Origin: an uncultured Algibacter sp.
Lineage (GTDB): Bacteria; Bacteroidota; Bacteroidia; Flavobacteriales; Flavobacteriaceae
Direction: 5' to 3'
DNA length: 64,000 nt
Assembly: GCF_947490405.1 (NCBI RefSeq)
Contig: NZ_CANLGU010000006.1
Location: 103,410 to 167,409, forward strand
Part shown: positions 40,782 through 46,606 of the stretch, piece after piece
Layout of the letters: each line of letters opens with the position of its first letter
Position numbering within the stretch: position 1 is the first letter of the stretch
The notes under the pieces: model-generated
Told to the model about the DNA's origin: nothing
Database searches by the model: none
The model's input: the letters and a program-made list of their open reading frames with translations, nothing else
Program-made: the position numbers and the translations under genes

Positions 40782-41400
40782 TAATATTAATATTATATGT
40801 TGTTTTTAATTCTTTGATAAGTTGGTCTGGAGATTTAAATTGAATACCATTGATACCAAGGTTTTTTGCAGCTTCAATATTTCTTAAATTATCATCAATA
40901 AAAATAGCATTTTCAGCATTTATATTAAATCTTTCTAATGTGAGATTATAAATCTCATCAAAAGGTTTTCGTGTTTTTTCTTCACCAGAAACGATAATAC
41001 CCTCAAACCACTGTAAAAACTCAAAACGCTCGAGAGCAATAGGGAAGGTTTCTGCACTCCAATTAGTTAATGCTACAACTTTGTAGTCATTAGTATTAAT
41101 CAAATGTTTTAAAATGGCTACGGTACCAGCTATCGCATTGCCCAACATGTCTTCCCATCTTCCATAAAACATGCGTATTTCTTTTTCGTATTCAGGAAAT
41201 AAAGCAACACGATCTTCGGTGGCTTTAGCCATGGGATAACCTGCATCCTGATTTTCATTCCAATCGCTAGTACAAATATTATCAAAAAACCATTGCATTT
41301 TTTTTCGGTTTCCTTTAAATACATCTAGAAATACATACTCTGGATTCCAATCGATTAAAACACCTCCTAGATCAAATATTATCGTATTAATTTTGTTCAT
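40774..41400 (-). CDS. HAD-family phosphatase
   Basis: FDLGGV, LTNW, RKP, FIDD. Confidence 0.9.
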
Positions 41401-42507
41401 AATTGATTATCATCTTCAACTTGTTGTCCCATCATCATTAAATATGATTTAAGAAATTCATCAATTTGTCCATCCATTACCGCATCAACATTACCTGTTT
41501 CATGAGATGTTCTAACATCTTTGACTAGTTTGTAAGGATGCATCACATAATTCCTTATTTGGCTTCCCCATTCAATTTTCATTTTGCCAGCTTCAATATC
41601 ATCACGTTGTGAAAGTTGCTTTTGAAGTTCTATTTCATAGAGTTGAGATTTTAGCATTTGCATGGCTCTGGCTCTATTGTCATGTTGAGAACGCGTTTCA
41701 GAACACGATATTTGAATACCTGATGGTTTATGAGTAAGTTGGACCTTCGTTTCAACTTTATTCACGTTTTGACCACCAGCACCACTTGAGCGTGCCGTAG
41801 TTATCTCGATATCTGCTGGGTTTATTTCAATTTCTATAGTATCGTCAACCAACGGGTAAACATAAACAGAAGCAAAACTTGTGTGTCGTTTTGCATTACT
41901 ATCAAAAGGCGATATTCTAACCAAACGATGCACACCGTTTTCTCCTTTAAGCCATCCAAATGCAAAATCACCTTCAATTTCCAAAGTTACTGTTTTAATG
42001 CCTGCTACATCACCTTCTTGATAGTTGAGATCTTTAACTTTAAACCCACTTTTTTCGGCATACATCAAATACATTCTCATGAGCATGTTAGCCCAATCAC
42101 AGCTTTCAGTTCCACCAGCACCTGCTGTAATTTGCAGTACAGCACTTAAATTATCACCTTCTTCAGAAAGCATGTTTCTAAACTCGATATCTTCTATGAG
42201 TATAGCAGCTTTATTGTATCTTTTTTCTAAATCTTCAGCAGTAGATTCACCTTCTTTAAAAAACTCATAGATAACTTCAAGATCTTCAATAAGTGTTTTT
42301 AGATCTTTGTAGTCTTGAACCCATTTTTTCTTTACACGAAGTGATTTCATAATAACTTCAGCAGCTTTAGGGTCGTTCCAGAAATTTGGATCGAAGGTTT
42401 GTTCTTCTTCGTTTTGTATTTCAATTAATTTGGCATCTATGTCAAAGATAGTGCCTTAGTTTGTCTAGGCGGGTATTAAGATCTTTAATTTGATCTGATG
42501 TTATCAT
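41397..42507 (-). CDS. prfB: Peptide chain release factor 2 with programmed +1 frameshift
   Basis: ATG at 42507 reads 21 codons to CTT-TGA-C (42447-42441). The +1 frame continues DIDAK... into SPF and GGQ motifs. Confidence 0.96.
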
Positions 42508-45132: not shown

Positions 45133-46320
45133 TTACCACCAGTATCTTATACAATGTTCTGGCTCAACATAATCACAAAGCTCACCTCCATGACTACTTT
45201 CACCACTAATTACATTAAATACACCTCTAAAATATCCAGGTCCAATTTTAGTATCGCAATTAGTTTTAATTTTTGTGTAGTAACAATTGTTGATGTATAT
45301 ATAAATATAACTACCAAAAGTTCCATCATGATTTTTTCCTGAGATATTAATTATCTCACCAGGTTGAGCATATCTATTACAGTAAACTCTTTTTCCGTAA
45401 CATGTATTCTCATATCTTTGAACAATATCGATTTTCTTAGTATTGTGCCAATCAAATTCTAATTCTAACTTAGTAACTTTTCCTTCACAATCACTACAAG
45501 GGATTTCTTTTTCTGGAACATCAACCATATAAATAATTGATTGTTTTCTCTCTTCAGGAACCAAAACTAAAGCTACTTTTTGACCACATCCAGGAACAAA
45601 ATCTTGACCGTTATCTAATGCAGCCTGAACAATTTCCATACCTTTAGCTTCTTCTTCTGGTCTAGTTAAAAACCATTGACCAGTTGGGTCTGTTAAATAT
45701 GTACATAAAGCACAGTTTCTATCATCAATAAGTTCCCAAATAGCCCATTGTACATGACCATATGTATAAGTACCACCACTTGGACTTGCTTCTCCTATAA
45801 ATGTTTGATTTAATATCCAGTTTACAAGATCAAAATTATCTACATTTTCAAATAATCCCTCAGGAAGTACTTCATAACTTGAATATACATCAAAGTTAAG
45901 AGGTCCTTCAACACCTAAATCTAAATCTACATCAACACACCATCCTTCCAAACTAGCATCAGCTAAGCTAGAGTCATTAATGTCAAATTCAAAATAAGAA
46001 TTAGGCCCAGGATTAGAAGTCGTTGTTACACTTATAGTTTCAGGTAAACTTAACTCTAAAGCTTCAAGGTCAGGAGTACATTCCGCACTTGAAAGACTAC
46101 TTGAAGTAGAAAATGTAAGTGCTGGAGCTGGCATTTCAGCATTTAAATCTTGGTTTAGAACGAATGTTTCGTCTTCTTCCCCATCAGAGACTAAGATTTG
46201 GTCTTCCATAGAAAGTTCTTCTTCAACGATTGAAGAGGCACCCTCGTTTAGTGTCTCATTCTGACACGAAGCTAATACAACAAGTATAGCTAATAAAAAT
46301 AATTTGGTAAGATTTTTCAT
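45133..46320 (-). CDS. Surface lipoprotein with thioester-domain-like motifs and Cys-rich C-terminal domain
   Basis: Lipobox LASC; GWCVD, HVQWAIW and KQSII motifs. Confidence 0.65.
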   Translation of the reverse strand: MKNLTKLFLLAILVVLASCQNETLNEGASSIVEEELSMEDQILVSDGEEDETFVLNQDLNAEMPAPALTFSTSSSLSSAECTPDLEALELSLPETISVTTTSNPGPNSYFEFDINDSSLADASLEGWCVDVDLDLGVEGPLNFDVYSSYEVLPEGLFENVDNFDLVNWILNQTFIGEASPSGGTYTYGHVQWAIWELIDDRNCALCTYLTDPTGQWFLTRPEEEAKGMEIVQAALDNGQDFVPGCGQKVALVLVPEERKQSIIYMVDVPEKEIPCSDCEGKVTKLELEFDWHNTKKIDIVQRYENTCYGKRVYCNRYAQPGEIINISGKNHDGTFGSYIYIYINNCYYTKIKTNCDTKIGPGYFRGVFNVISGESSHGGELCDYVEPEHCIRYWW

Positions 46321-46606
46321 AATATAAAATTAGTTTTTTACAATTTACAATTACAAATATATCGGATGACGTCTTTGAGAGTTGTTTTTTTAGACTAAAT
46401 ACCAAACTTTTAGATTTATGAAATTTTGCTTACACTTTGTCGGTTTTATTTACATTTAATAAGGTTTTAGAAACTTTTTTTAGAACTCTGCAAGCTTAGT
46501 TATTATGATGAAACAATTAAATTCATAATTACATATACTTCTATATGCGAATCTTGTGTTAAATTGAATATTTATTTAAATATGTAGCAAGAAATTTGCT
46601 TAAATA

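Follow-up and report, generated by a model that had tools for sequence, protein, structure and literature searches.

A lipoprotein gene in the window, the 64,000-nucleotide stretch of DNA from an uncultured Algibacter sp. that was analysed here, encodes behind its lipid anchor what appears to be a compact version of the thioester domain (TED) known from Gram-positive adhesins. The account that best explains the evidence, to which we give a probability of roughly 0.6, is that the 395-residue product (P0001) is tethered to the outer membrane and that its compact TED forms a thioester. The parts of this account differ in strength: homology of the N-terminal domain (N-domain) to TEDs is highly probable; an internal Cys–Gln thioester, which we infer from the chemistry of characterised TEDs, is probably present; the complete picture of an adhesin would be a less secure proposal than the bond itself, and an algal or animal surface might be the target. 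The original prediction had listed a lipobox, an acidic linker, the motif GWCVD, a helix bearing HVQWAIW, the motif KQSII and a separate Cys-rich domain, and each of these elements was recovered in its place:

45133..46320, reverse strand: the whole gene for the 395-residue lipoprotein P0001, stop codon included (open reading frame list and translation)
46264..46320, reverse strand: signal peptide MKNLTKLFLLAILVVLASC with lipobox L-A-S-C19 (sequence)
46087..46263, reverse strand: acidic, mostly disordered linker, residues 20-78 (composition and predicted local distance difference test score, pLDDT)
45505..46086, reverse strand: compact thioester-like domain, residues 79-272, 194 residues (AlphaFold2 (AF2) models, Foldseek, weak Pfam TED match)
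45931..45945, reverse strand: G-W-C128-V-D, residues 126-130, closing strand 3; putative Cys of the thioester (conservation, profile position)
45736..45756, reverse strand: H-V-Q191-W-A-I-W195, residues 189-195, on helix 2; counterpart of TQXX(hydrophobic)W (conservation, motif of PMC6194298)
45532..45546, reverse strand: K-Q260-S-I-I, residues 259-263, just before the last strand; proposed thioester Gln (conservation, strand position)
45136..45504, reverse strand: C-terminal Cys-rich all-beta domain (C-domain), residues 273-395, with the pattern CxDCxGKV...IGPG...GGELC, related to DUF7467 (PF24269) (AF2 and the Pfam matches of relatives)

The attribution to a flavobacterium also held, the nearest named relatives belonging to Algibacter, Hyunsoonleella, Flavivirga and Winogradskyella; together with Seonamhaeicola, these genera supply full-length homologues whose identity runs from 96% down to ~31%. 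A word-indexed search returned 249 homologues at E ≤ 1e-3, and an exhaustive search 1430 clusters at the same threshold. Each half of the protein is a module in its own right, with residues ~80-280 and ~270-385 recurring separately in other proteins, some of them longer than 3000 residues.

Structure prediction carries the assignment of the N-domain. A full-length AF2 model built on a 98-sequence family alignment has pLDDT above 90 over residues 80-270, and a domain-only model reaches a pLDDT of 95.8 and a predicted template modelling (pTM) score of 0.91. Secondary structure assigned by DSSP in these models comprises strands 95-102, 110-115, 121-128 and 141-147, helices 160-170, 187-198 and 217-237, and strands 248-255 and 262-267; this order of four strands, three helices and two strands is that of class I TEDs as described in PMC6194298, and the models show the six-stranded antiparallel β-barrel and three-helix bundle of the TED fold. 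TEDs carry the bond-forming Cys on strand C, the bond-forming Gln on their last strand, and a conserved Gln and Trp on helix 2 (PMC6194298); correspondingly, the third strand here closes with C128, Q260 stands just ahead of the last one, and Q191 and W195 sit on the second long helix. When either model was searched against the PDB with Foldseek, ranks 1-24 were all class I TEDs (Cpa, SfbI, CpTIE and PnTIE), with probabilities of 0.99-1.00, E values of 1.4e-5 to 4e-3 and template modelling (TM) scores of 0.41-0.53. Class II TEDs followed at ranks 25-27 for the domain-only model (probability 0.12-0.44), with every other fold at 0.05 or below, which agrees with the TED-like fold that had been predicted; for the full-length model, rank 25 was a Bacillus anthracis TIE (thioester, isopeptide and ester domain) protein, and the remaining matches were weak (lamin-tail immunoglobulin (Ig) folds at 0.20-0.25, phospholipase C at 0.16, chains of the anaphase-promoting complex/cyclosome (APC/C) at 0.10-0.12 and Fc receptors below 0.1).

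Conservation converges on the same residues. Two sets were compared: the family alignment of 98 sequences, and a distant set of 48 N-domain copies excised from unrelated architectures and phyla, at 29-50% identity. Throughout the family alignment the invariant N-domain residues are C128, S147, N167, N171, Q191, W195, W216, P243, G246 and Q260; in the distant set C128, N167, N171 and W195 are kept in all 48 domains, and Q191 and Q260 in 47. The published TED motifs are [YFL]-C-hydrophobic-hydrophilic on strand C, TQXX(hydrophobic)W on helix 2 and a weak hydrophobic-Q-hydrophilic-hydrophobic-hydrophobic pattern on the last strand (definition of Walden 2015 and Miller 2018; PMC6194298). Here W-C128-V-D closes strand 121-128, the residue before the Cys being W in this protein and W, Y or F among relatives; V-Q191-W-A-I-W195 lies on helix 187-198 with V in place of T; and K-Q260-S-I-I precedes strand 262-267, with K rather than a hydrophobic residue at the first position of the motif described as weak. 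These three motifs are the most conserved features of the domain, and therefore not a chance pattern.

Profile searches tie relatives of the protein to the TED family. Pfam TED (PF08341) was matched by 16 of 28 family members (best E value 1.4e-5); among 36 distant domains, 15 matched it (best 1.2e-7) and none matched any other Pfam family. One relative, P0185, scores 56 bits. In every protein checked (P0185, P0183, P0207, P0208 and a paralog in the same genome) the invariant Cys falls on position 4 of the Pfam TED profile. For that paralog, a TED-like lipoprotein of 388 residues (G000:C5; locus L001, 865..2031, forward strand), the genome search gave 24.4 bits, which exceeds the 22-bit cut-off, and scoring of the isolated protein gave 21.6 bits; in the helix 2-3 region it is almost the same as the window protein, but it has different flanking modules. 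Among the homologues, one is named 'thioester domain-containing protein' by NCBI and one has a precomputed PF08341 match. With hhalign, the single sequence of TIEpLS20, a class II TED protein with experimental support encoded on the Bacillus subtilis plasmid pLS20, gave an 18-column, non-significant match over the TQXXW region, and a 17-member TIEpLS20 family profile gave no match (probability 0.3%). A PF08341 search of 151 genomes from the class of a Eubacteriales relative returned none at E ≤ 1e-8, a threshold that may have been too strict. Taken with the fold, with three hallmarks that are invariant or nearly so, and with the Pfam TED matches of relatives and of the same-genome paralog, the reading as a TED-type domain stands.

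Four further cysteines lie in the N-domain: C81 (46078..46080), C245 (45586..45588), C203 and C206. Mean-field direct coupling analysis (mfDCA; 243 domain sequences, effective number Meff 168) recovered helix–helix and strand–strand contacts and placed the pair C81–C245 at rank 7; because this pair covaries, it probably forms a disulfide. The analysis is silent on C128–Q260 because both residues are invariant. C203-x-x-C206 sits in an insertion between helices 2 and 3 that is present only in the flavobacterial branch. Pairing of C81 with C245 and of C203 with C206 would leave C128 as the sole unpaired cysteine of the domain.

The mature protein begins with a type II signal's lipidated residue, Cys19, which together with S18 is nearly invariant in the family. 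The linker that follows holds 14 acidic residues (D or E) and no K or R in its 59 positions, and its mean pLDDT per 10-residue block is 42-64 (residues 21-50 and 61-80), rising to 80 in residues 51-60. Among 88 lipoprotein relatives the motif C-Q-N-E-(S/T)-x-x-E directly after the lipobox is conserved while the rest of the linker is not, which suggests that Q-N-E-(S/T)-x-x-E acts as a sorting signal. Bacteroidota lipoproteins are known to be exported by an experimentally defined signal in which the Cys is followed by K-(D/E)2 or Q-A-(D/E)2, the minimal form being a polar residue plus two or more acidic ones in positions +2 to +5 (Lauber 2016; PMC5080379). The window protein has a single acidic residue in these positions, and its exposure at the cell surface is no more than plausible.

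Behind the TED, distal to the anchor, lies the C-domain, whose 123 residues include eight cysteines and are modelled by AF2 as seven strands, all beta, at pLDDT 85-95. Its structural matches in Foldseek are weak, to lamin-tail Ig folds, at the probabilities given above. It shares with DUF7467 the pattern CxxCxGKV...IGPG...GG-LC, and that family is matched by 14 of the 28 aligned relatives (best E value 2.4e-4) and by P0152 (1.3e-17); the window protein's own C-domain gave no DUF7467 match in Pfam at E ≤ 10. Modules of this type occur singly or in tandem in other proteins, with up to eight matched stretches, so the C-domain behaves like a repeat module. Many relatives end in tails rich in Tyr, Cys, His and Trp, such as NCYNYYNYCIYGYY (alignment A1, columns 490-519); the window protein ends earlier, at CIRYWW (45136..45160, reverse strand). 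In P0106, P0119 and P0121 (Winogradskyella and Flavobacteriales), the signal peptide, acidic linker and Cys-rich C-domain are kept and an unrelated N-domain replaces the TED, which is domain swapping on a common chassis.

The domain is by no means confined to this family of lipoproteins. A scan of one genome per prokaryotic species yielded 260 confirmed loci, with hosts beyond Flavobacteriaceae in Calditrichales, Planctomycetota, Chloroflexota, Acidobacteriota, Caldisericia, Bdellovibrionota, Cyanobacteria, Eubacteriales and Archaea, the last including Haloferax marinum (L053), Thermoplasmatota, Promethearchaeota and Hodarchaeota, with loci L048, L049, L052 and L057 from Thermoplasmatota and Asgard archaea. 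The motifs [WFY]-C-x-D and (V/I/L)-Q-x-x-I-W were present in 13 of 15 open reading frames read, the frame of the other two having evidently been mispicked; archaeal copies keep the Cys motif intact and carry VQRAIW, and the Haloferax marinum protein has an N-terminal twin-arginine signal. Pfam TED gave no match in five of six domain-carrying genomes from other phyla. Within Flavobacteriaceae the domain is patchy, occurring in 5 of 80 sampled genera. Close relatives (48-50% domain identity) carry C-terminal sorting domains of the system for type IX secretion (T9SS); in other carriers the domain lies among SdrD_B, SpaA and DUF7507 stalk repeats, which are typical of fibrillar adhesins. These T9SS domains and adhesin-type stalk partners, with the conserved motif after Cys19, speak for an extracellular role.

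The architectures around the domain are themselves varied. P0127 (3310 residues) consists in part of five near-identical repeats of ~460 residues with one TED-like copy each, and P0162 (3283 residues) holds two TED-like copies amid dozens of Cys-rich CDxxDNDCDG repeats. In the same-genome paralog (L001), P0183, P0196, P0207, P0247 and most non-flavobacterial relatives, the TED is preceded by an N-terminal module, LIAGQ..VG.V.VWND..ETHL.V..NGNPIPGQF.Y, and followed by a short C-terminal segment, ETAWG.G..FPG.NWA.YF.Y, neither of which has a Pfam match. The arrangement resembles that of Cpa, with the TED apparently placed within a second beta domain.

The gene's immediate neighbours are housekeeping genes: YbaB lies upstream on the same strand, across a gap of 286 bp, and a threonine aldolase gene is convergent. 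Since both direct neighbours are of this kind, an operon with them was considered and rejected. The sequence TATATTTG at 46354..46361 on the reverse strand, 41 nt 5' of the ATG, fits TAnnTTTG, which we take to be the Bacteroidota -7 promoter element; the match is of little weight because such matches are frequent in AT-rich DNA. Farther along, prfB, the gene for release factor 2 (41397..42500, reverse strand), has at 42447 the classical site for programmed +1 frameshifting, CTT TGA C, where a short upstream frame runs on in the +1 frame; this is a known feature of that gene.

One nearby gene recurs with the TED across Flavobacteriaceae, an adenylate-forming ligase, listed here with two examples of linked loci among L004-L041:

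42644..43954, forward strand: PaaK/F390-synthetase-like adenylate-forming enzyme, 436 residues, no signal peptide (NCBIfam, superfamily-level matches only)
locus L020, 3689..4996, reverse strand: PaaK-like ligase
locus L015, 1181..2482, forward strand: PaaK-like ligase

The window genome has a single close copy of this ligase, at a distance of ~1.2 kb from the TED gene's 3' end. A homologue stands beside a TED-like gene in ~31 of 46 flavobacterial loci, in both orientations and in at least four different contexts: between a YbaB–TED pair and the aldolase gene; between DnaN–TED–TED and a NeuD-type acetyltransferase; facing the genes for long TED proteins of Arenibacter in convergent orientation; and as TED–ligase–TED in a Muriicola genome. 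At six loci the ligase gene comes next downstream, in the same orientation, after 101-402 bp. Across 81 sampled Flavobacteriaceae genomes the TED domain was found in 6, the ligase in 14 and both in 4; in each of those four, the two genes are found 1.5-3.6 kb apart. Outside Flavobacteriaceae, the linkage was not seen in the loci compared. Where the ligase occurs away from a TED, it lies in apparent polysaccharide clusters or beside other secreted proteins, judging from the neighbours' N-terminal sequences only; those neighbours include a NeuD-type acetyltransferase (NCBIfam) and open reading frames that resemble glycosyltransferases and a sugar transferase (N-terminal sequence only). The linkage looks to be under selection. 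A cytoplasmic enzyme cannot act on the folded, exported domain itself, and the linkage raises the possibility that the partner of the TED is made by the cell itself and is not a foreign surface.

On the account we prefer, the protein would be exported by the Sec pathway, cleaved by signal peptidase II (SPII), given its lipid on Cys19 and held at the outer membrane by its flexible acidic linker of ~60 residues. After folding, the C128 thiol would attack the side-chain amide of Q260, releasing ammonia and forming the internal Cys–Gln thioester, which would be shielded between the β-barrel and the three-helix bundle beside Q191 and W195 of helix 2. A primary amine on a partner could then open the thioester, giving an isopeptide link through Q260 and regenerating the C128 thiol, and the C-terminal DUF7467-like β-domain, probably stabilised by disulfides, might serve as a recognition or spacer module.

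A number of observations weigh against this account. The protein itself scores only 14.3 bits against Pfam TED (E = 0.055, residues 159-202), where the cut-off is 22 bits, and its 17.2 bits in the genome-wide search are likewise below it. HMMER reached no solved TED, whether the query was the full protein, a profile of 28 family sequences, a profile of 36 domain sequences or the relative with the strongest Pfam TED match; because these searches of solved structures found none, the link to solved TEDs rests on Pfam and fold comparison. The structural fit is loose (TM ~0.5, root-mean-square deviation (rmsd) 6-7 Å, identity 8-15%), a strongly diverged geometry that makes the domain a distant relative. 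Its four extra cysteines would sit in an oxidising compartment, whereas the TED of TIEpLS20 has one Cys. The segment C-Q-N-E-T has a polar residue at +2 but one acidic residue within +2 to +5, with two acidic residues in 19 of the 88 relatives, so the export signal is incomplete and a periplasmic orientation is therefore possible. Finally, the anchor is N-terminal, with the TED directly after the linker and the C-domain distal, the reverse of the order in Gram-positive TIE proteins, so that the TED is not at the tip of a stalk as it is there. The low identity to solved TEDs, the sub-threshold Pfam score and the surplus of cysteines in an oxidising compartment would also fit a TED fold that makes no thioester, in which the domain binds non-covalently or is structural, and C128 and Q260 are kept for packing or hydrogen bonding or C128 is taken up in a disulfide. 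We consider this unlikely, since exactly the residues of TED chemistry are jointly invariant or nearly so across bacterial phyla and archaea at 35-45% identity, which packing alone would hardly achieve, and since C81–C245 and C203-x-x-C206 account for the other cysteines and leave C128 unpaired. Far less probable is an enzyme with C128 as its nucleophile, be it a hydrolase or a transferase, of the papain-like or transglutaminase-like kind: an invariant Cys behind an aromatic residue and very weak Foldseek matches to bleomycin hydrolase can be cited for it, but those matches have probabilities of 0.01-0.03 and TM scores below 0.1, the domain has no invariant His (H189 is Asp in most relatives), and no peptidase or transglutaminase family was matched in Pfam or NCBIfam. 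With no conserved His and no Foldseek probability above 0.03, a cysteine protease or transglutaminase was rejected.

The ligase bears on a different question, that of what the thioester would capture. The bond might be real and its nucleophile self-made, an amine-bearing surface polysaccharide, small molecule or peptidoglycan, with the lipoprotein tying an envelope polymer to the outer membrane and the ligase helping to make the partner. The position of the sole close ligase copy in the window genome, its adjacency in most of the flavobacterial loci, the linkage in every sampled genome that carries both genes, the appearance of the ligase elsewhere in apparent polysaccharide biosynthesis clusters and the incomplete export signal, with the periplasmic location that it allows, are all consistent with such a role. 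The enzyme is, however, cytoplasmic and without an assigned substrate; it is often convergent with the TED gene, and in the window the threonine aldolase gene intervenes; 2 of the 6 TED-positive genomes have no ligase and 10 of the 14 ligase-positive genomes no TED; the linkage was not seen outside Flavobacteriaceae; and the T9SS-secreted and archaeal versions favour a general extracellular binding role. We therefore regard a self-made partner as quite unlikely. A broader conjecture, which we hold to be a long shot, is that the domain represents a third, minimal class of TED, the form used outside Gram-positive bacteria (in lipoproteins and T9SS cargo of diderms and in archaea, including haloarchaea and Asgard lineages), and that in Flavobacteriaceae it belongs to a two-gene system in which the PaaK-like enzyme builds an amine-bearing surface glycan or small-molecule partner, the thioester serving to fix this self-made part of the envelope covalently, as a programmed step, on an outer-membrane lipoprotein and not to hold on to a host.

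In the literature searched, up to a Science Advances paper of October 2026, adhesins with an internal Cys–Gln thioester are described as a Gram-positive device (Firmicutes and Actinobacteria), and no paper was found there that joins thioester domains with Bacteroidota, flavobacteria, diderms or haloarchaea. The compact form of TED, with its much wider host range and here in the format of a lipoprotein, extends a known kind of domain; database annotation had already caught a few members. If the bond forms, covalent 'harpoon' attachment would exist also in marine Gram-negative bacteria and in archaea, on a smaller scaffold that Pfam mostly misses. It would then bear on how particle- and alga-associated flavobacteria attach, and would raise the question of whether covalent capture is an ancient surface strategy of prokaryotes; a compact domain of 190 residues might also serve as a tool for protein ligation. 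The adenylating enzyme that recurs beside the TED may give a clue to the natural partner.

Comparison with known thioester proteins places the domain closest to class I TEDs. With SfbI (5A0L), CpTIE (5A0G), Cpa (2XID/4C0Z) and PnTIE (5A0N), the only significant structural matches, it shares the order of the fold, the placement of Cys, Gln and Trp, and a linker of ~10 residues between helix 3 and the penultimate strand. Class I is marked by helix α-0, which an indel of 15-20 residues adds after strand D and ahead of helix 1, and class II by a β-sandwich of ~75 residues with a slipknot between helix 3 and strand P (PMC6194298). Neither insert is present here: in either AF2 model the 12 residues 148-159 are a helix-free loop, and the ten residues 238-247 span the distance from helix 3 to strand 248-255, so that the N-domain, as modelled, is a compact, minimal version of the TED without either insert. 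It further differs from class I TEDs, at the 8-15% identity given above, in that W precedes the Cys, Val replaces Thr in TQXX(hydrophobic)W, additional cysteines are present and a CxxC is inserted between helices 2 and 3, and from class I TED adhesins in its N-terminal lipid anchor in a diderm, where they have a C-terminal LPXTG anchor. Gram-positive TIE proteins also carry CnaA/CnaB isopeptide or ester stalks, whereas this protein has neither an LPXTG motif nor a Cna-type domain in Pfam. The lack of α-0 is common to class II TEDs (BaTIE 6FWV, EfmTIE86 6FWY and TIEpLS20), and the YCID of TIEpLS20, an instance of [YFL]C(hydrophobic)(hydrophilic), can be likened to the Cys motif found here; TIEpLS20 also illustrates that TEDs act in non-pathogenic cell–cell adhesion.

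An amine-reactive internal Cys–Gln thioester in a diderm envelope protein, as proposed here, recalls the α2-macroglobulin of Escherichia coli. Bacterial α2-macroglobulins are lipoproteins with a CxEQ motif, in which Cys and Gln are adjacent, and an α/α-toroid thioester domain; they are larger, at ~1650 residues, contain macroglobulin (MG) domains, have an unrelated fold and trap proteases rather than adhere. A thioester of this type was rejected for P0001, which has no CGEQ or CLEQ motif, no match to an A2M family and no such fold among its structural matches. While the protein departs from the TIE architecture and from the definitions of both classes, its fold and the three motifs support its membership in the TED superfamily.

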